64,000 nucleotides of DNA from a virus (Duplodnaviria; Caudoviricetes). The notes beneath the pieces are model-generated. The model did not search any database. It was not told the DNA's origin and worked only from the letters and a program-made list of their open reading frames with translations. The number at the start of each line of letters is the position of its first letter. The first letter of the stretch is position 1. The position numbers were made by a program, and so were the translations under genes. Below, one piece after another: positions 3,179 through 21,910 of this stretch. The stretch is from IMG/VR virus record IMGVR_UViG_3300010429_001449; one strand, written 5' to 3'.

Positions 3179-3742
3179 CTACCAACGCAGCCCGATGATA
3201 TGAAAGCCGCAAATCACGCCTCTTTCCTCCATCTCGTAGCCTACGAACGGCCCCATCTCTATACCAAGCAGTGTAGGAAACTCTCGATCCAGTGCTACAA
3301 ATAGTGCTGTCCTGTTCTCGGAGTACGCCAAGCCCGGCGCTAAAGAAAATTTTCCGATTTCTGGAATTTCTACGCGAAAAAACTCGAAAGAGGCTGTTGC
3401 CAGCGCGTCTTGTCGGTGCGTGTACAGCGCCCCGGCGTGCGCTTCCGGAACAACAAGAGAGGCTCCTTCGTCGGAGCCTCTCTCTGTTGCAGGCTCATCC
3501 GCGACCCATCCGGGCGACAGACGCAAGGCAGTCGGAGGCGCGGCATCCTTGCTTGTCTTCTCCCGATGTTCTTGAATGACCCGTTGTTCCTTTGGCGTAA
3601 GCAGATGTACTTTGCGATTGCCGATGCAGCCGCTAAGGAGCAGGGGCAGCAGGGGCAGCAGGAGCATCGCCACCGGCGGGAGCCGCAGGCTCAGCGGGCG
3701 CACTGGGCGTCGTATCCGCTGTAGAGTGTGTAGCTTCATCAT
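3179..3742 (-). CDS. Lipoprotein in lysis cassette (spanin-position protein)
   Basis: Basic N-terminus, hydrophobic stretch and lipobox LLSGC. C-terminal amphipathic beta-strands end in Trp. Overlaps the holin-like gene by 110 nt. Confidence 0.65.
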   Translation of the reverse strand: MMKLHTLQRIRRPVRPLSLRLPPVAMLLLPLLPLLLSGCIGNRKVHLLTPKEQRVIQEHREKTSKDAAPPTALRLSPGWVADEPATERGSDEGASLVVPEAHAGALYTHRQDALATASFEFFRVEIPEIGKFSLAPGLAYSENRTALFVALDREFPTLLGIEMGPFVGYEMEERGVICGFHIIGLRW

Positions 3743-4061
3743 CGGGGGTTCCGTTGTTGTGTGAAACGTCCACCAAGGCCGCTGCGGCGGGCCAGAAGCG
3801 ACGCAGAAGGGCCTTAATGACCTGATCCACCACCGCTATCAATCCGACCGTTGTAGCCCACGACAGAGCCTCTGAGAAGGGAATCTTCTGCCAAGCGGCT
3901 ACCAGACCCACCACGGCTCCGATAGGCAGCTTCGTGATAAGGGTCTTCCACTCGAACTTTTCGAGAGGCGTATTCTTGACGTAGCCGATCAAAACGAGGA
4001 TTACGCCAGACATTACGCCCTGCAACAGACTGAGAAGGAGTTGTTGAGTTTCCGGACTCAT
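3633..4061 (-). CDS. Holin-like small membrane protein
   Basis: About three hydrophobic segments, a GYVKN..EKFEWK motif, and a basic patch followed by a Pro/Ala/acidic tail. ATGA-coupled to the caspase gene. Confidence 0.65.
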   Translation of the reverse strand: MSPETQQLLLSLLQGVMSGVILVLIGYVKNTPLEKFEWKTLITKLPIGAVVGLVAAWQKIPFSEALSWATTVGLIAVVDQVIKALLRRFWPAAAALVDVSHNNGTPDDEATHSTADTTPSAPAEPAAPAGGDAPAAPAAPAP

Positions 4062-4951
4062 GGTCGTGGACCTCCTAGTATTGCGGTTGTTTCCAGACCG
4101 GGCGCGGCCAGCAGAAGCGGGTCTTGCCCGTAGTTAATCTTGAGCGTGTCTGCCGTCTCTTTGACGATCAAGCCTGTCGGCAGCGTGCCGTTGTTGATTT
4201 GCTGGAGCATTATGTAAGAGAAAGCGCCCCGGTAAACGCCGCCCATCTTTGTCTCGGCGGCGGTTTGGTTGTCTTGGCACGCGGCGATGCTGATGACGTT
4301 CTTGCGTTCCTGCCGAAGGGTTGTGCCGAGGCGGTGAATCGGGAGCGTTTTGCCTTCCGCACGCACTTGGATGTCGAACGGCGGGGCCAAGAAACGAGAC
4401 AGGCGTTCCGGTTCTTCTGCGGGCTGACCCGCCGGGTCGTTGCGCGTTAAAGTTCCGGAATGGCAGCAGTCGAAGATCATCCAGGCGAACGCTTCGGGAT
4501 GCAGCTTCTCCAAGCACTCGGCGATTTCGTCGTCCAGAAGGGCGTAATCCCACGACATGTCAACCGGGCAGATACACTCGTCAAGACGGTCTTCCAGTTC
4601 GTCTCCGTCGCGGTCGCGCAGACGAGAGCCGTGCCCAGAGTAAACGAACGCGATCTCGTCGCCCTTCTTAGTGCCCTCGCACAACCAACGCAAGCGAGTA
4701 AGGATGTTTTCCTTCGTTGCCCGCTCGTTGAGCAGCACCCTTGTGTCGTAGTCGAACTTTTTGGTCAGCGTAGACCACCACTCTTTTGAGTCGTTGACAC
4801 ACCCCCGGAGGGCGTTCCCTCCAGGATAGGCGTCAATCCCAACTACAAGCGCCTTTCGCGTTCCTGCAAACCGAAAATCAGGAGGAGCGTCTTTTGCGGA
4901 CTCGGGCGATTTGGCGCGGTTGGTTCCAAACAGTCTGGCGAACAATCCCAT
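4058..4951 (-). CDS. Metacaspase / caspase-like peptidase C14
   Basis: RKALVVGIDAY...LRGCVND, catalytic dyad motifs YSGHG and FDCCHSG, DECICPVD, AACQDNQTA.E, GAFSY, Q.P.L. Confidence 0.93.
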   Translation of the reverse strand: MGLFARLFGTNRAKSPESAKDAPPDFRFAGTRKALVVGIDAYPGGNALRGCVNDSKEWWSTLTKKFDYDTRVLLNERATKENILTRLRWLCEGTKKGDEIAFVYSGHGSRLRDRDGDELEDRLDECICPVDMSWDYALLDDEIAECLEKLHPEAFAWMIFDCCHSGTLTRNDPAGQPAEEPERLSRFLAPPFDIQVRAEGKTLPIHRLGTTLRQERKNVISIAACQDNQTAAETKMGGVYRGAFSYIMLQQINNGTLPTGLIVKETADTLKINYGQDPLLLAAPGLETTAILGGPRP

Positions 4952-5006
4952 TGATCATGATCCTCCACAAACAGTAATGCGGCGGACATCGCCGCGATCT
5001 GCCGAC

Positions 5007-5041
5007 ATTATAGCACAAAACAGCCCAGAAGTGTTGTGCTA
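5007..5041 (-). promoter_or_regulatory. Extended -10 promoter for the caspase/holin/lipoprotein cassette
   Basis: TTGTGCTATAAT (5018-5007), identical to the 12-mer at 34341-34330. Overlaps an 8-bp inverted repeat TAGCACAA/TTGTGCTA. Confidence 0.65.
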
Positions 5042-6757
5042 GTTTAGTCCTGTGATGCGCTCTATGTGAGTAAGCGGATCATCGTAACCATCGCAAAACA
5101 CCACTAGAGGATAGGGCACGGTAATATCAGAGTTAAGATCGCCCGTTTTCTGTAATCCTATTGTGATTCGGCGGTCGGAGAGTATGGTGTCGTTGCCCGC
5201 CGTAATCGGAGCTTCAAACGTGTATGTACGGATAGTTTCTCGGTTGTACGTATTATCGAGTTCTTCCCGGATGGCGTGATTCAAGAAAGCGCGGCCAAAA
5301 CTTCCTTGCGGAACGATTGTCCACGCGCTTCTGAAAATGTTGGACCACAGAACCAGACTTGATCTCGCCGACAACATCGAGCGGAATCGCCCCACTGTAT
5401 GAAAGAAGTCTGAGTTCAGACCAACCACTATCCGCCAAAACGGAGGAATAACAGGGTTTAGGTTGACGGGTACAAGTTTTGACCGCGACGCTCCTAGCGA
5501 AAACGCAAAGTCGGACCACGCAAGATAAGGGTACGGCGTTCCGGGAGGCGGCGTGAGAGCAACGCACGCGCACATCGTGTCCGGCGGGCCTTCTGGAAAC
5601 GTAGACCAATTGCCGAAAGTGGCCTCGTCTATAAGAGAAGGCACGGTTGAACTGGACCAATCGGGATCGCCCGAGTACATGACCTTGGTCCCTACTTGGT
5701 AGAAGGGGCGGATGACGTAGGTGGTTCCTCCATCAATCCGCTTTACGTAAACGCAACCTACGCGCCTGCGGTATGTGTATGTGCCGGGCGGAAGGAACGC
5801 ATCGCCGTTAGCCTTCTTAAGATAGCCGTACAGCGTAGATGTTTCTTGACCCGGAAGCAAGCTGCCGTCGGCCAACAGATAAATCCAGTACCATCCCGTG
5901 GGCGACGACGGGCAATCCTGTCTACCATTAACGCCGATCACGCTCGGATTTATGGTCACAACGTTTGTCGCGTTGAAGATCACACTTCCCGTTCCGTCAA
6001 CGCAGACCGTGCCCGGCATGATTCGGATCAAGTTGTCGCTCGACTCGCCGAACATCGTAACATTGGCCACGGCTCTCTGGATTGCTGTAGCCGTAGAAAC
6101 GGTGTTGATGGTTTTGTACAGCGGGTCAGAAACCTTGTTGATGCCCTGCGGATATACGCCTCTCACGAAAACGGCGTCATCAACACTGAAGTTGATTGTT
6201 TCCGCGCCGGTAGAACGGGCTATGACCGCTCCGAAGACCTGCCCTTCGCCGCCGTCCGTCAAGCTATCACGAATTTCTTTGGTGACGCTCATCAGCTTCC
6301 AGTCGCCGGAAGCGTCTTCCAACCAACGACCGTCGCTCCACGGAGGCGAGTAAGCAACATCGTTGCCGCCCGAGTCGTGGTCCTGCAGCATCAGATGAAC
6401 TTTGCCTTGATCAGCGACGTTTGTAACCTTCACCCACGCGGAGAACGAGGCGTACTCTGTCTGAACTTCTTTCCACTGAGGATCACCCAACACCGTCTTA
6501 AGACCGCCTTGTTGCCCTGCGCCGCCGGTAGTCACGGCAACGTCGGCTACTGTCCCGCTGCTGTATCTGGCTGCTCCGCCGCCGCTGTTCTGTGTGACTA
6601 TTACGCCAGTAGCGGTGCCAGGATAGATAAGCCAATCCACAGGCAGTCCCAACGCCCACGCCTCTACGCCGCCGTTGTTTATGAGCGACTCCGGATAAAC
6701 TTCCCGGATTCTGGCTCCGTAGGCCCGTTCTAGTTTTTGCCAGCTTGCTTTATCCAT
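5039..6757 (-). CDS. Tail fibre / receptor-binding protein with CBM-like N-terminal domain
   Basis: LINNGGVEAW...FSAWVK...VDDAVF jelly-roll signature and a WYWIYL...LPPG.YTYRRRVG fibre motif. Last gene of the tail module. Confidence 0.6.
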   Translation of the reverse strand: MDKASWQKLERAYGARIREVYPESLINNGGVEAWALGLPVDWLIYPGTATGVIVTQNSGGGAARYSSGTVADVAVTTGGAGQQGGLKTVLGDPQWKEVQTEYASFSAWVKVTNVADQGKVHLMLQDHDSGGNDVAYSPPWSDGRWLEDASGDWKLMSVTKEIRDSLTDGGEGQVFGAVIARSTGAETINFSVDDAVFVRGVYPQGINKVSDPLYKTINTVSTATAIQRAVANVTMFGESSDNLIRIMPGTVCVDGTGSVIFNATNVVTINPSVIGVNGRQDCPSSPTGWYWIYLLADGSLLPGQETSTLYGYLKKANGDAFLPPGTYTYRRRVGCVYVKRIDGGTTYVIRPFYQVGTKVMYSGDPDWSSSTVPSLIDEATFGNWSTFPEGPPDTMCACVALTPPPGTPYPYLAWSDFAFSLGASRSKLVPVNLNPVIPPFWRIVVGLNSDFFHTVGRFRSMLSARSSLVLWSNIFRSAWTIVPQGSFGRAFLNHAIREELDNTYNRETIRTYTFEAPITAGNDTILSDRRITIGLQKTGDLNSDITVPYPLVVFCDGYDDPLTHIERITGLN

Positions 6758-6766
6758 CGTTTTTTC

Positions 6767-7501
6767 CTAAACCTGAACGACGCCTGCGCGAGACGACAGG
6801 CTGTCAACTCCCACAATGTCATTCGCCGCGTTAGGTACCAAGCGTATCACAAGGAAGCAGGTCTTTCCACCTTCGTATGTTCCTGTCAACAGGCTGCGAT
6901 CCAGCGTAACCTCGGTTCTCGTCGGAGAGGTCTGAGGCGCTGTTGCCAGCGTCTGTTTGACGCCGGACGTGTCCCACACTTCCTTGATAGACCACGTTGG
7001 AGTGCCGTTGAACGCCCGAGCATAGAAACGGAAGGCCGACCCCGGAGGGGCGGTAGCGGAACTCTTGAACGTCGAGAAGTTGGCGGGAAGATCGAAAGAA
7101 ACGAGCATCTCTACTGGATCGGTGTTCAGGAACTCTACGGCGAGGTAATTGGCAACGTCGGTCTCGTCGAAATGGTTGTAGCGAGAGAAGGACGCGCCGG
7201 GATTGCCTCGGACTTCTACGCGCCCGACAACGTCGGTGTCCTCGATCTCCGTGATTGTGCTGGTGGCCTGCTTCATCGAGACGTAGGCTTGGTATGTTCC
7301 CGAAGTTGTCTCTTGCCCGTCGATGATGACTTGAGCACTTCCTTCGTTGATTTTGGTCTGGAGTTGCGCAGAGGTGTTGATCGTCCGGGACGACATCTTA
7401 TCGGTGATATCCGTATCACTTCCGGCGGGGAAAGTAATGGATGTTCCCCAGTCGTCTATCGTGAACGGACTCGTCGACAGATTTCTAATGACGTTACCCA
7501 T
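6767..7501 (-). CDS. Putative virion structural protein
   Basis: Beta-rich ORF coupled within the tail fibre cluster. Confidence 0.55.
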   Translation of the reverse strand: MGNVIRNLSTSPFTIDDWGTSITFPAGSDTDITDKMSSRTINTSAQLQTKINEGSAQVIIDGQETTSGTYQAYVSMKQATSTITEIEDTDVVGRVEVRGNPGASFSRYNHFDETDVANYLAVEFLNTDPVEMLVSFDLPANFSTFKSSATAPPGSAFRFYARAFNGTPTWSIKEVWDTSGVKQTLATAPQTSPTRTEVTLDRSLLTGTYEGGKTCFLVIRLVPNAANDIVGVDSLSSRAGVVQV

Positions 7502-8751
7502 TAGAGGATGACCGGTCTCCCGATGTTAACCTCAAGGTCTTGTTGAGTGGCCGCGAAGCCCACTCTCTGGAGCCAGACTGTTCCCGGCGGCCAGAAAGGC
7601 GCACCCCACAACAGCGCGGAGAACAGAGCGTCGGTGTAGTAAATCGGCGGGGGCGGAGGCGGCCCCGGAAGATAGACGGCGTTTACGGAAGAAAACTGAA
7701 AGATCATGCCTGGAACAGGGCAGAGGCCGGGGTAAGGCGGCGGGAGTATTCCTGCGGCGTAAACAGCCTCGCCGGGATTCATAGGCGCTGGGCCGCCCGG
7801 TCCCGGAAATTTGTAGTAAAGGTCGCCCGCCCAGTTGGGGTTGGTGATCAGACCCTCGAATTGAACTCGCGTCGGGTTGGGAACGGAGGGGCCTAGGATC
7901 GTATCCAGAGCGAAACCAGCTACGGTACCAACTTGTCCGGCAATTCCTATGTCCGCCTGTACAACTCCGACACCTGACTGCGACACCAGATCATAAGCAA
8001 AGACAGGAGCGGCAGTTGCCAAGCTTACGTAGTCTACGCCCGACTGCGTCGTCGGCATCGCCGGATCGTAAGGAACGTAGGTAGGCCCGTCGTGAAAGCG
8101 TCCGGCGACGCAAATACCCTCGTCAACAAGGAACGTCACTAAAGGACCGCCCGGCGGTTGAATCACGGCGATACCGCAGATAACAGGCTGTGTGGGATCA
8201 GGGGCGGCAGGCGATCCGATTCCTAACAGATAGTCTTCATCGATGAAAGCCCACGCCACAAGCTTTTCCCATGTTCCGCTGCCGCTGTGGGGCTGCCCGT
8301 AGGTTTTGTGCCACGCGCCCAAGCTGTCGTACCACCACACGAACGGTTGAACCACGCCGCCGGAGGTAGTATAGACGTAAGCCGAAAACGTTAGCGGCTT
8401 ACCCACGAACTCCGAAGGATTGCGAACGCCCTGCCAAATACCGAGATCGACATTTGGTACCGCCGACGGCGAGCCGACGACATTTACTTGCGCAGCCACT
8501 ACGCCAGACCGCGCCGTTCCAGAGCTTTGAACCTGTACCAAGTTGACGGTAGGCCCTGCTTCCGTATTCGTATCCAGAACAAACCAGTAGTCTGCGCAAG
8601 ACGGGTTATTGGCGTGCGGCGTCAAAAGCGGTGGGAACGGGCCGGGTCCGGCAAGCCACGTCTCGTATCCGCCGTTAAAAACCAGCGTTTGCGGAAAGAA
8701 ATCCGCCGACATCATCTGGTTCTGGTGAAGTTTGCTTCTGTCAAGAGCCAT
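7501..8751 (-). CDS. Fibre protein: CBM-like domain plus C-terminal cement/beta-clip-like domain
   Basis: LVFNGGYETW...LTFSAYV. The C-terminal VAGFA...FEG...GEAVY...QRVG pattern is shared with the 51-56 kb paralogs. Confidence 0.55.
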   Translation of the reverse strand: MALDRSKLHQNQMMSADFFPQTLVFNGGYETWLAGPGPFPPLLTPHANNPSCADYWFVLDTNTEAGPTVNLVQVQSSGTARSGVVAAQVNVVGSPSAVPNVDLGIWQGVRNPSEFVGKPLTFSAYVYTTSGGVVQPFVWWYDSLGAWHKTYGQPHSGSGTWEKLVAWAFIDEDYLLGIGSPAAPDPTQPVICGIAVIQPPGGPLVTFLVDEGICVAGRFHDGPTYVPYDPAMPTTQSGVDYVSLATAAPVFAYDLVSQSGVGVVQADIGIAGQVGTVAGFALDTILGPSVPNPTRVQFEGLITNPNWAGDLYYKFPGPGGPAPMNPGEAVYAAGILPPPYPGLCPVPGMIFQFSSVNAVYLPGPPPPPPIYYTDALFSALLWGAPFWPPGTVWLQRVGFAATQQDLEVNIGRPVIL

Positions 8752-10431: not shown

Positions 10432-13400
10432 CTACACCTTCAGCGTGTAAACATCGGGTACCCCATCCGCCGTCTTGACGTAAATGGCGGCGGGATTAAC
10501 GGACGTGTCGATCCAGACCCATCCGATGGGGTAGCCATCCGGCGGTTGCGTTGCACCGCGACTTCCTATCAACATCGCCATCGTAGCCAGCGGATTCTGG
10601 AATCTCGGAAGGTAAGAGCCGTCCCAATCAATCGGAGCGGCCAAGTTTCCAGCCCAGAAGAAGGCGTTGGATTGGTTCGTCGAAACGTCGGAGAGCCGCG
10701 CAAGTTCGTTGACGCCGCCGCTCCTGCCTCCGTTCGGAACGAACAGAAGGAATTGATCCCACAATTCGGGCGTGAAGTTCAACTGAATCGTGTGGCGGTC
10801 GAGAATGGCATAATCGCGGTAGTCAGACGCGGCTATGGCCTCGTCGTCGCCGACCGTCGGCGGTATCGTGTCTCGGCCCCACATCAACATCTTCCCGTTG
10901 CGGAAGACCAGCAGGCTTCCATCCGAATCGAAGTAGGCTCCGGTAGGTCCGGTATCAGGCAGTTGAATGACCTTTTGCGCGTCAACGTCCTTCAAGAACC
11001 ATTCGGGGGCTATGTCGAGCTTGTAGTAAACGGCGGGCGTGCGCGAAACGCCTAAGTCGTCTCTGACACCGACACGTATGAACGACTGAACTTCTCCCGG
11101 CGACCGTGGCGTCGTGAAGATGATCTGCCCCGGCAACTCGGTGTAGTCCTCAATCGGCCTTTGGAGAATGCCGCCCGAGTAAACCAGAACCGAGCGGTAG
11201 TCCGGAGTGAACGAAAACTGCGTGATTGTGAACGCAACGCAGTGTTCTGTGCCGCCTCCGAAGCCGTAATCGTAATCTTGCGCCGTGTCTGTCGGATCGG
11301 CATCGATATCCTGCCGCGCCGGGATGACCGTCTCGCTTGCTACCGAGTAGACGACGAACAGGACGCGCTCGCCTACGTGCAGGGGGGCTAGGAACTCAAC
11401 GGAGTTCACGGTCAGTTCGATATAATCGACGCCTTCGAGTTGAAGCTGACCATTCCTGTAAACGAACAGGGAGTGGTTGCCCATCACGTAGGCGTATTGA
11501 TCGCCCTGAACGATGATTTGGAGCAACAGCGCATCTCCGTCCACGGGGATGCTTGCCGGGCAGAACGTGATGCTGCTGATAGTTGTTTCTTCGTAGTCGG
11601 TTCCGGGCGTGGCGCACCCGCCCACAGGACCGCCCGTTTGAAGCACGCCGTTGACGTAAACGCGAAGGTGCGCAAGGTCTTGGATGTACTCATACGAAGC
11701 CGGTGGAGGAGTAGGGTTGGCGCAGGTTGGAACGACGCCGCCAATATGAATGAGCGAGTTGTATGTTATGTAGCAGTCAACCAAGTCCGACGAGTTTCCG
11801 AGGGGAACGATTGTTTGGCCTTCGGTATTGATCGTTTGAAGGTCATAAATGACCGGCTCGCCGGGGAAGTCTCCACCGTCGCCGCCCGTTCCGCCGCCCT
11901 TGTTAAGGAACTCGCGCACATCCGTTATGTCGGCTTCTTCCACGATAACAGGATCAATACCGCCTTGTTCCGTTACCTTGACTATGGCGATAGCCAACAT
12001 ACTTACCGGAATGTCGGGGGCATTGAGGCGGGGCGTCCCCGTCCCGAAGGCCACGGGTGTGCCTGGAATCACGGCGATTGTCTCGGTATCCGTGGCCGCC
12101 ACAAGGTCGTAGCGTTCCAACCCAAGACCTACGGGGCTGAACGAACTGCTTCCGGAAGGAACTATCGTGTCGGACACGATATCGAGAACGCGCTTGCCGT
12201 TGCTGGAAACGTAGCGTCCCGACTTGACGGTGATTTTGTTGTTGGGATCGGGGAACGACGGGATGGGCTTGAGCATCAACAGGTGATGACGTTCAACAAC
12301 GTCTTTCAACGTTCCGTCGTCGTTCAGGGACACGCTCAACCGGGCGTCCAGAGACTCCGAGAAGTCGTAGTCGGCTACGATGTTCTGCCCCGGTACGGTA
12401 GGCAGCGTAAACGTAAAGGAGTAGTAGCCCGTGTTGTAATCAATCGTTCCAAGCCCGATACCGCCGGTCAAGCCGCCGGTGCCGTTGTCGGTAATGACCT
12501 GAGACCCGTCTTCCGGTTGTATGACGACGCTGAAGGGAACGATCACCAGATTCTTTAAGTAGCCGGAATAGCTCGATCCCCCTGCGGGGGCCATGTACTC
12601 TCGAACCACCTCGGCGACCGCGCCGTTCGTCATATAAGAAAAATCTGCGGTCACAGCGCCCGTAGCCACGGTAAACGTAACGTCGTAGGCTCCGGTGTCA
12701 TAATTGATCGTGCCGTAACCGTCTCCGAGCATCAGGCCACCACCATTATCAGCAAGCTGCTGCGGCGTCGTAGGGTCGTCGAAGATGACAGAACCCGGCA
12801 CAATGTTCGTCTTACTCAGCGTTCCGGTATAGTTCGTTGCCCCAATGCCTATCGGCTCGCCGGTTACGGCGGCGAGGCCGCCGCCTCTTGCGGCAATGAT
12901 TTCCTCCCACAAAGCAACCAGACCGCGCTGGAAGTTGAAGGGGTTGCCGTCGTGGTACAGGGGGCGAAGGTCCAGAATCTGGCTCTCGTAGATGATTGTT
13001 GCCTGGCGAGCAATCTCGGCCAGCTTGAAGATGTAGTGGTAGTTCCCGTCCGAGTCGGTGTAGTCAGCCGGTTCGAGATAGGTATCGATGTCTTGAACGA
13101 CGTTGATTACCTGTCTAAGCTGGCTGCGTAGCTGCCCGATAGTAGCCACCGACAGACGATGAATAAGGTTAGGGTCTTCGTAGCGGTCGATTTCGTCGAA
13201 AAAGACGTTAAGATAAACGCCGTCCCGCCGCGTTCCGGGGCCGGAGTAGTCGAGATTGATCCGGTAGTAGGTTCCGGCGATCATTCCCAGCGACGTTCCG
13301 TTGACTGTTATTGTCGTTGCGGTGTTGGCTGTTATCGTATAAGGCCCGGACGGGTTGGCCACGTCGGGAACGATGGTTCTGTTCACCAGCGACCCCGCCT

Positions 13401-20197: not shown

Positions 20198-21910
20198 CTA
20201 GTCAACGCACCTTCTGGTTGTCACAACCTGTTCGGGGCCTTGCTCGAACGTCAGGGAGAGCGAGCCGAGCGCGAGCAGACAGCTTTCCAGCGGCGTAACG
20301 GCTCCGAGCCTATCCGTAGTACGGAAGCGGGCCTTGTCGCCCGCCAACATAGGATCAGGCCCCGGATTAGTGATCGTGAAGATTATGGTACTGTTGAACT
20401 CGATGCCGACTTGTCCTGTTCCTATCAACCCGGCGTTGGAGCCTCGAACGGCGAAGTTCGTAGCGTCTGTAAACGTTACCTCCCACGCATCGGGGGCGGC
20501 GGTAGGACTTACGTCTATGTCCGAAAGGACCGCATCACCGCGCCACGGACTCAAAACGGGTTGCGGGAGAAGGGTAAAGACCGACAGGTCGGCGGACTCC
20601 ACTCCTTGAACGCCCGTTATCGTGTCGTACACGCTGCTCTGGTGCAACGGAAGGCCAAAGCCTATCAGAGGGCTGTCTTCCTCGAAAATTGCCTGTACAG
20701 CGGCTATAACGGCTGTCTGAACGGTATCCAGATCGAAGCCGTCAAGAACACGCACTTTCCCTTCAATCCGAACTTGCTCCGTGCAGAATCCCGCCACAGT
20801 CACGACCGTACAAGAACTCTTGCGCCCTTCGAGGAACTCGTAGATTTGTTGCTGCAGCAACGATGTTGGTTGCCCGCCGCCCGCAGGGTAGACGTAGAGG
20901 CGGATTGTGCAGCAGCCGCTCTCGATGTTATGCGCGTCATGCACAATGGCGCGGGCCTTCTTGATCTGGGAGAACTCAGCCAGAACCAGATTCTCATAAT
21001 CCTCCGGCGTGACGGCTCGGTAGAGGGCGCGGAGCGATGCCGGGCCGAGAATCTTAGCCTCTTCAATCGTCTCGCCGTCTCTGCCGCCCGACGCTGCGCT
21101 GGGATTGTTTACCGTAACGCCCGCCGGAACAGCCGTTACGAACGTCGTCAGCGTCGCCGCTCCGACGTTTCCGGCAGCGCCGACTCCAATGCGGTAAACG
21201 ACTCTGACAATCGCGCCAGCCGCAGGAATCTTGCCTTTGGCTCCGTCACCCAAACGAATATCGAGCGTGCCGTCCAGACCTTCGACGACGACGTAATCGC
21301 GGCTCGACTCCGTAGAGTCAAGGAACGAATCTACCTCCGTCCATAGAACCTCGCCCGATCCTTCGTCTATGTAAACATCGATGCTGTCCAAGTAGACGCC
21401 GCTTCGCGTCAGCGAGAACGTCAGGAACGTCCTGCTTTCCAGGATGTTGTAGAGGTCTTCGACCGTCTGACCTTCTTCTGCGCCTACCGTCTCCGAGTCA
21501 CCCGCTGCGATTGTGACCTCGGCGGTCGTCTCGAAGTACGTGATCGTGTCTCCAGACGTTTGAACGCGGGTACCAGACGGAACTACGACAGAAGAGGTGG
21601 AGCCGTTGGCTATTACGAGATCAACCGAGGCGGGCGTAGGCCCGTCCATCTCGTAGTCAATCAGCTTTACCATATTGGCTACGGACGTGCGAGAAAGCGC
21701 CGTCGGAAGGAAGCACTCGTTAGCGGCGCGGTCGATGTAGAAATGCAATCCGTCAGCGACGTAGGCGAACAGTTCAAGCAACACTATTCCATTGTTAGAG
21801 GCGTTGTGATCTGTCCACTCGGGGTTAAAGTACGGGATCGCCGCGAGCAAAGAGGCGCGGATGCCGTCAAAATCTCTGGAGGTGTAATCTATCTGTATCT
21901 GCTTTGACAT
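20198..21910 (-). CDS. Baseplate J-like wedge protein
   Basis: IDYTSRDF..IR..L...PEWTD...GIVLLELFAY, GDG..GKIP, YR.G.G..GNV, ASGG.D.E, RAVT.EDYE motifs. Confidence 0.92.
   Translation of the reverse strand: MSKQIQIDYTSRDFDGIRASLLAAIPYFNPEWTDHNASNNGIVLLELFAYVADGLHFYIDRAANECFLPTALSRTSVANMVKLIDYEMDGPTPASVDLVIANGSTSSVVVPSGTRVQTSGDTITYFETTAEVTIAAGDSETVGAEEGQTVEDLYNILESRTFLTFSLTRSGVYLDSIDVYIDEGSGEVLWTEVDSFLDSTESSRDYVVVEGLDGTLDIRLGDGAKGKIPAAGAIVRVVYRIGVGAAGNVGAATLTTFVTAVPAGVTVNNPSAASGGRDGETIEEAKILGPASLRALYRAVTPEDYENLVLAEFSQIKKARAIVHDAHNIESGCCTIRLYVYPAGGGQPTSLLQQQIYEFLEGRKSSCTVVTVAGFCTEQVRIEGKVRVLDGFDLDTVQTAVIAAVQAIFEEDSPLIGFGLPLHQSSVYDTITGVQGVESADLSVFTLLPQPVLSPWRGDAVLSDIDVSPTAAPDAWEVTFTDATNFAVRGSNAGLIGTGQVGIEFNSTIIFTITNPGPDPMLAGDKARFRTTDRLGAVTPLESCLLALGSLSLTFEQGPEQVVTTRRCVD

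Follow-up and report, generated by a model that had tools for sequence, protein, structure and literature searches.

Can a caspase-family protease take the place of an endolysin in the lysis of a phage host? The question is raised by a locus at positions 3179-5041 of a 64,000-nucleotide stretch of DNA, referred to here as the window, from a tailed virus (Duplodnaviria; Caudoviricetes; IMG/VR record IMGVR_UViG_3300010429_001449). The window corresponds to G000:C1:20839-84838 of the virus record, minus strand. Directly after the last tail-fibre gene, the locus encodes a peptidase C14, a small membrane protein and a lipoprotein. A preliminary description placed the protease in the endolysin slot of a lysis cassette and proposed either that the phage lyses its host by proteolysis or that the protease activates the membrane protein by clipping a long disordered tail.

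The comparison of the locus with its relatives favors a different arrangement. The membrane protein and the lipoprotein were retained across the clade, while the gene upstream of them varied, so that these two proteins form the backbone and the protease is an accessory. In the reading preferred here, to which we assign a probability of roughly 0.45, the backbone would serve in lysis or in another late action on the envelope, as a holin-like pore and an outer membrane lipoprotein, and the accessory would be a membrane-associated cytoplasmic metacaspase.

The three-gene unit

All of the genes in the window, including the three considered here, lie on the minus strand. The peptidase C14 gene (4058-4951) encodes a metacaspase-like protein of 297 residues and has the sequence GGAGGA 9 nucleotides before its ATG. 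Its stop codon overlaps the start of the membrane protein gene (3633-4061; 142 residues) in an ATGA sequence, with AGGAGG 8 nucleotides upstream of the latter. The lipoprotein gene (3179-3742; 187 residues; lipobox LLSGC) begins within the membrane protein gene, and the 110 nucleotides that they share (3633-3742) encode the tail of the membrane protein in one frame and the signal peptide of the lipoprotein in another. The three genes constitute a coupled unit with its own promoter, as previously described. Among the relatives, the overlap between the membrane protein and lipoprotein genes was 80 nucleotides in L007, 61 nucleotides in L021 (called start 6582) and at most 44 nucleotides in L019, taking the start of the longest open reading frame, while in L020 there was a gap instead of an overlap.

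Conservation among relatives

The closest loci, L007, L008 and L009, in which the C14 protein was 55% identical to that of the window, shared with it all three genes, their overlaps and the neighbors on either side. A much more distant phage contig, L020, encoded a 304-residue C14 that ended 2 nucleotides before a holin-like homologue (42% identical), which was followed by a homologous lipoprotein (23% identical). The linkage of C14 to a holin-like gene, which the preliminary description had suggested surveying, was therefore found in these two groups of loci and did not extend to L021, G001/L022, L023 or L024. In L021, the C14 position was occupied by a 281-residue metallophosphoesterase-like protein that overlapped the holin-like gene by 4 nucleotides and had GDxH, GDxxD and GNHE motifs, although its match to Metallophos (E 0.012) was below threshold. 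In G001/L022, L023 and L024, the holin-like gene was preceded either by a receiver-domain protein or by a coiled-coil protein that has a C-terminal transmembrane segment.

The holin-like protein and the lipoprotein were both present in L007, L019, L020, L021, L026 and G001. The last of these is a 156-kb relative with an estimated completeness of 89%, whose structural module is syntenic and 25-67% identical. The two genes were 7 kb apart in G001 and 1.6 kb apart in L026, and no C14 was found in G001. Since both proteins were retained while the upstream gene varied, they represent the backbone of the locus and C14 is an accessory. An endolysin would be obligatory in a phage lineage, whereas C14 was absent from G001 and from loci L021, L023 and L024. 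This comparison did not support the claim that C14 stands in an endolysin slot, as the position has no fixed content: it is filled by the metallophosphoesterase-like gene in L021 and is without C14 in G001/L022, L023 and L024.

The two C14 lineages that are linked to the cassette were not sisters in a quick tree. Two independent insertions of C14 upstream of the holin-like gene are not claimed, because an approximately unbiased test did not reject a single origin (p 0.39).

Several other genes accompanied the holin-like gene in the relatives. The coiled-coil protein with a C-terminal transmembrane segment preceded it at L020:4149-5083, L021:3760-4608, L022:3123-3985, L023:723-1923 and L024:9-665. 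A stand-alone receiver (REC) protein was also encoded in L020, L021, L022 and L023, before the coiled-coil protein in L023 and after it in L020, L021 and L022, and was lacking in the short contig L024. Neither protein was found in the 144.8-kb virus record. PI3/PI4-kinase-like proteins were encoded both by the phage of the window (L002:1202-2071; G000 20202-21071) and by G001, which had two copies after the holin-like gene (L022:4659-6122 and 6708-8201). Downstream of the holin-like gene in L023 (2999-5544), amidoligase-like, class-II glutamine amidotransferase-like (N-terminal MCG) and small HExxH-like proteins were recognized by eye, a possible peptide-modification module.

The C14 protease

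The preliminary description of the first gene product as an intact peptidase C14 was borne out. The protein matched PF00656 with 92.6 bits (cut-off 21.4 bits; E 3.9e-26), and this was its sole domain. The closest sequences in the PDB were the type I metacaspases Yca1 and MCA2 (E 2e-26 to 1e-23). The catalytic dyad, His107 (in SGHGS) and Cys163 (in DCCHSG), was invariant across an alignment of nine sequences, and the acidic loop DRDGDELED was kept in the homologues. The likeness to metacaspases extended to the level of motifs, in the Asp before Cys-Cys-His and in the acidic loop. By these sequence features, the protein is apparently an active metacaspase-like cysteine protease and, by analogy, it is probably specific for Arg or Lys and dependent on calcium.

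An N-terminal extension of 30 residues begins with the short amphipathic helix MGLFARLFG noted previously (hydrophobic moment 0.49), and no transmembrane segment or signal peptide was found in the protein. Such extensions recurred in the subfamily, in which an aromatic amphipathic helix led into a Pro/Gln-rich linker, and two members, P0004 and P0022, had a true transmembrane helix and then a run of lysines at the N terminus. The amphipathic helix was considered as a trait specific to phages and rejected, as it was present in cellular homologues, for example in a protein from a KSB3 bacterium. Since the protease lacks an export signal and has an N-terminal helix that would bind membranes, we infer that it sits against the inner membrane, on the cytoplasmic side.

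Homologues of 40-47% identity were common in bacteria of anaerobic sediments (KSB3, Anaerolineae, Desulfobacterales), and the cellular homologues that were inspected were located in polysaccharide or variable islands. Five homologues had a C-terminal PG_binding_1 domain and no signal peptide. The possibility that these fusions were prophage lysis cassettes was rejected, since the three that were looked up were in chromosomal contexts, one of them beside a STAND-like NTPase. On the Desulfonema limicola chromosome (L016:5979-9083), a C14-PG_binding_1 fusion without a signal peptide directly followed a 666-residue protein with weak matches to STAND-type NTPases (AAA_16, NACHT), and this locus looks like a conflict system of the nucleotide-binding leucine-rich repeat (NLR) type with a protease effector.

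A protein search of a phage collection with C14 gave a single match (35%), in an unannotated 485-kb uncultured phage, and the corresponding DNA search gave no match to the window. A scan of IMG/VR with C14, the membrane protein, the lipoprotein, the tail fibre and a 154-residue neighbor found nothing, and none of the three genes of the unit had a match in PHROGs. A C14 of 39% identity was encoded on a large virus-like contig (L014/L015:7001-7828) with Volactin, QueC, SET and CorA and no holin-like neighbor.

The holin-like membrane protein

The membrane protein was previously described as having about three transmembrane segments. The hydropathy profile showed one strongly hydrophobic segment (residues 8-26) and two weaker ones (about 38-58 and 60-86). 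An N-out, C-in topology is predicted from the Lys-rich first loop and the K-x3-RR sequence that follows the third segment; the latter residues, K83, R87 and R88, were near-invariant in the family. This topology was supported by three relatives (P0125, P0127 and P0133) that bear an added N-terminal signal peptide.

Residues 1-100 form a core that was highly conserved among close relatives, followed by a variable tail rich in Pro, Ala and acidic residues. The total length was 142 residues in the window, 132 in L007 and 108 in L019, and the tail was 60 residues long in the window and about 26 in L019, its length being set in part by the overlapping lipoprotein frame. The long disordered tail, which had been put forward as a functional feature, was consequently not a conserved one. 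In some members of the family there was an additional conserved C-terminal domain of about 110 residues (P0128, P0129, P0132 and G001; L021:6001-6642 and L022:3995-4666), which in L026 (461-850) was a separate overlapping gene.

An exhaustive HMMER search defined a family of 124 cluster representatives, mostly of 85-140 residues. Phage_holin_3_3 (PF16083) was weakly matched by 5 of 79 family members (best E 1.8e-4), and one member matched a PHROG holin. In the ESM Atlas, the protein fell among viral clusters of about 100 residues, and its nearest named neighbors were holin families, both by features (0.77) and by structure (TM-score ~0.55). Word-based homology searches with the membrane protein and the lipoprotein recovered the nearest relatives alone; a search of the phage collection with the holin-like family gave no match, and a scan of genome contigs with the membrane protein found nothing. 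The protein has the general characteristics of a holin, being a small phage membrane protein with transmembrane segments and a charged C-terminal region. In size, topology and weak signals of holin superfamily III it is holin-like, and the sequence evidence suggests that it may function as a holin.

The lipoprotein

The lipoprotein has an Arg-rich signal peptide and the lipobox LLSGC with Ile at position +2. A charged linker leads to its C-terminal beta domain, which spans about 88 residues and ends in Trp; the mature protein would have about 148 residues. The upstream start was favored because its Arg-rich n-region aligned with that of a relative. The lipobox Cys was present in all seven members of the family, though it did not fall in one single column of the MAFFT alignment. 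An AlphaFold2 model calculated from two sequences was unusable (predicted local distance difference test, pLDDT, 39), while that from seven sequences showed a seven-strand beta domain at residues 100-187 (pLDDT 80-93), preceded by the disordered charged linker. Foldseek found no significant match to the modeled domain. VIA-align matched it to generic small beta-barrels (best BBn6, Z 10.2), with outer membrane eight-strand barrels and cystatins at Z ~5.5, and these matches imply no function. The terminal Trp was considered as a strict outer membrane beta-signal and rejected, since the L019 lipoprotein extends 12 residues past it.

Like the lipoprotein component of a spanin, the protein has a lipobox and, with Ile at +2, is not expected to be retained in the inner membrane. 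It lacks the C-terminal transmembrane segment of a unimolecular spanin, and no gene resembling an i-spanin partner was found in the unit. The coiled-coil proteins of the relatives have C-terminal transmembrane segments, unlike an i-spanin.

Transcription signals and flanking genes

The preliminary description had the unit preceded by an extended -10 promoter and followed by a new promoter that starts a replication operon, and both were located on the minus strand. Upstream, a tail-fibre-like gene of 572 residues (5039-6757) ends at the stop codon 5039-5041 and is separated from the C14 gene by a spacer of 90 nucleotides. Directly past the stop codon, reading of the sequence showed the extended -10 promoter TGcTATAAT (5015-5007), which was missed by a promoter scan because it has no recognizable -35 element; its TATAAT was kept in L007. 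The spacer also contains a GC-rich hairpin with a 6-bp stem (4995-4979), at the predicted 5' end of the transcript. A hairpin was present at the equivalent site in L007 (about 2950-2975), just downstream of the TATAAT, with the stem GAGACG/CGTCTC rather than the GCGGCG/CGCCGC of the window, so it is the structure and not the sequence that is conserved. The hairpin could stabilize the mRNA or act as a weak terminator of read-through from the tail-fibre gene.

Right after the lipoprotein stop codon, a strong sigma-70-type promoter (TTGACA-16-TATACT, 11 of 12 matches; 3175-3148) opens the next operon. The genes beyond it encode the 154-residue protein, a family-4-type uracil-DNA glycosylase, a zinc-ribbon protein, a helix-turn-helix/DnaD-like initiator and an IstB/DnaC-like ATPase.

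Search for a peptidoglycan hydrolase

The scanned virus record is 144,805 bp long (CheckV 83%). The same proteins were present on a contig of 269,027 bp, so the record is a fragment: the search covered about 54% of a contig whose length is at least 269 kb, with approximately 46% of the genome beyond its reach. Pfam scans covered the 179 open reading frames of at least 70 residues in the whole record. Contractile tail, baseplate, portal, capsid, PolA, RecA, DnaB, primase, NrdD and sigma factor families were among those found in the record, and there was no match to a terminase family. No lysozyme, amidase, transglycosylase, M15, M23, CHAP or NlpC family was detected, either in the window, where the preliminary description had recognized no peptidoglycan-degrading enzyme, or in the rest of the record.

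In G001, no peptidoglycan hydrolase was present among the best 25 of 53 Pfam families. Searches of this genome with the profiles PF00959, PF01464, PF01510 and PF01471 were also negative and carry little weight, because the same type of search with PF00656 missed the window's own C14, which hmmscan detects at E 3.9e-26. G001 has no C14 and equally shows no recognizable endolysin, so that the lack of one is not confined to C14-bearing phages.

A phage contig of low G+C content (34%), L036, encoded a C14 with an N-terminal transmembrane anchor (5001-5921) that was 52% identical to that of L020. A GH108/PG_binding_3 endolysin was found 5 kb from this gene (10897-10921), and there was no holin-like or lipoprotein homologue in the contig. 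The L036 C14 sits among small genes next to HNH.

Comparison with known systems

The gene order recalls that of bacteriophage T4, another large myovirus, in which the holin gene t directly follows genes 37 and 38, the last of the tail-fibre genes; no endolysin gene lies close by, and the endolysin and spanins are encoded elsewhere. The T4 holin itself is non-homologous and differs from the window protein in having one transmembrane segment and a large periplasmic domain, and it has no coupled protease. The window protein more closely resembles the class I holins (lambda S105) and holin superfamily III (P1 LydA, Phage_holin_3_3), which are also phage-encoded proteins of about 100 residues with three segments, N-out/C-in topology and a basic cytoplasmic C-terminal region. 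Unlike these, it has no match of its own to a holin model, and no endolysin was seen beside it in any locus.

The window C14 shares the SGHG and D-C-C-H-S-G motifs and the acidic DxDGDE loop with type I metacaspases (yeast Yca1, Trypanosoma MCA2) and with bacterial orthocaspases. It differs from them in being encoded by a phage and in beginning with a short amphipathic helix where they have a prodomain, and its specificity and calcium dependence are those expected by analogy. As in bacterial gasdermin systems, a gene for a caspase-family protease adjoins that of a candidate for membrane permeabilization. In contrast to those systems, the partner is small and helical, has no conserved inhibitory C-terminal peptide and belongs to a phage rather than to a host defense island. 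The membrane protein had no match to a gasdermin family in Pfam, nothing was found with PADLOC, and its tail is not conserved.

The end of the unit resembles the Rz/Rz1 spanin genes, in that the gene for an outer-membrane-type lipoprotein overlaps the preceding membrane protein gene out of frame. The overlapped gene, however, is holin-like and does not encode an i-spanin with a periplasmic coiled coil, and the lipoprotein is larger (about 148 residues when mature), has a folded beta domain and, unlike the T1 u-spanin, lacks a C-terminal transmembrane segment.

Discussion

In the preferred reading, the locus would consist of two layers. The three-segment membrane protein and the outer-membrane-directed lipoprotein would be the backbone of a clade of large uncultured myoviruses, usually at the end of the tail-fibre module. 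This backbone most likely acts on the host envelope late in infection, the membrane protein being a holin or holin-like pore, and the wall-degrading enzyme would be encoded elsewhere or be one not yet recognized, by analogy with T4, in which the lysozyme gene is distant from holin t. The C14 gene would be an insertion specific to certain lineages, placed just upstream of the holin-like gene and translationally coupled to it. The protease would then be made when and where the holin-like protein is, at the cytoplasmic face of the inner membrane, and could cleave a host or phage protein at the membrane in support of killing, lysis timing or counter-defense, rather than digest the wall.

Several results weigh against this reading. 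The window membrane protein itself did not match the Pfam or PHROG holin models, and in none of about nine distinct loci that carry its gene was there a peptidoglycan hydrolase beside it; an adjacent endolysin is not required of a holin, as T4 shows. The failure to detect a hydrolase in either the 145-kb record or the best 25 of 53 families of G001 means that the part of the reading that places an endolysin elsewhere rests on genes that are unseen or unrecognized. In addition, the cellular C14 homologues with PG_binding_1 and no signal peptide have an endolysin-like architecture. The tight coupling of C14 to the next gene, and the fact that two distant lineages have it in the same place, would also fit a direct role in lysis.

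That the protease is a real part of lysis in a clade of large phages without a recognizable endolysin, either as an envelope-breaching enzyme that acts via the pore or as a timing trigger at the membrane, is an unlikely proposition. The version put forward previously, in which C14 replaces the endolysin, passes through the holin-like pore and destroys a protein or peptide of the envelope, with the lipoprotein completing the disruption of the outer membrane, is distinctly unlikely. The order of enzyme, holin-like protein and lipoprotein, the ATGA coupling, the persistence of the arrangement in L007 and, with a distant C14, in L020, and the lack of a hydrolase family among the 179 open reading frames all agree with it, as do the PG_binding_1 fusions without a signal peptide. 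These fusions, however, lie in chromosomal surroundings outside prophages, and one of them adjoins a STAND-like NTPase. Relatives that retain both the holin-like gene and the lipoprotein have another gene, or none, in the upstream position, and G001, with neither C14 nor a detectable endolysin, indicates that the missing endolysin is a detection gap across the clade and is not tied to C14. Moreover, L036 pairs a related C14 with a GH108 endolysin, the putative membrane-binding helix sets the protein apart from soluble endolysins, PF00656 was the only domain detected in the protein where an endolysin would have a peptidoglycan hydrolase catalytic domain, and we know of no peptidoglycan hydrolase in clan CD. 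The fragmentary record, G001, L036 and T4 together remove most of the force of the argument from an endolysin slot. Of the earlier proposal of lysis by proteolysis, what stands is the coupled unit with its own promoter, its recurrence in L007 and L020, the holin-like size and topology of the membrane protein family, with its weak matches to holin superfamily III, and the lack of a detectable canonical endolysin in the 145 kb scanned.

The other earlier proposal, that C14 sets off pore formation by the membrane protein, in the manner of a gasdermin, by clipping its C-terminal tail, is very improbable. Adjacency and translational coupling are consistent with it, the predicted topology puts the tail in the cytoplasm on the same side as the protease, and the conserved Arg-Arg past the last membrane segment would suit a protease specific for Arg or Lys. 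What weakens the proposal is that relatives have a variable tail or none; in addition, the Arg-Arg is near-invariant also in family members that have no C14 neighbor, and the partner does not have the gasdermin fold. A function apart from lysis has a small but appreciable chance of being correct. The membrane protein and lipoprotein might modify or shield the envelope, for example in superinfection exclusion or receptor masking, with C14 as an unrelated accessory such as a counter-defense protease. Lipoproteins encoded beside receptor-binding genes, such as T5 Llp and Cor of lambdoid phages, provide an analogy, and the unit sits right after the tail-fibre genes under a sigma-70-type promoter apart from the late structural operon. 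The separation of the lipoprotein from the membrane protein in G001 and L026 points the same way, as do the settings of cellular C14 homologues (variable islands and the vicinity of a STAND-like NTPase, both typical of biological conflict) and the PADLOC result for C14, a generic caspase model alone (E 7e-19). On the other hand, the membrane protein resembles holins in its size, its topology and the weak signals of its family, the ATGA coupling argues against unrelated functions, and no similarity to Llp, Cor or other exclusion proteins was found.

Implications

The C14 protein is a new member of a known family, while the holin-like and lipoprotein families are undescribed. The analysis thus defines two uncharacterized phage families, one of holin-like proteins (124 cluster representatives) and one of beta-domain lipoproteins, which would constitute an envelope-directed backbone in jumbo-type myoviruses that have no yet-recognized endolysin. 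If C14 proves to be necessary for lysis, the locus would represent a new lysis principle, a protease-dependent route; if it is not needed, the protein would still be a tractable example of a phage-borne metacaspase. Prokaryotic caspase-family proteases are mainly known as effectors of host cell death and defense, and no report of a phage metacaspase translationally coupled to a holin-like gene was found in the literature. The coupling of a phage C14 to such a gene suggests that phages, too, use regulated proteolysis at the membrane late in infection.

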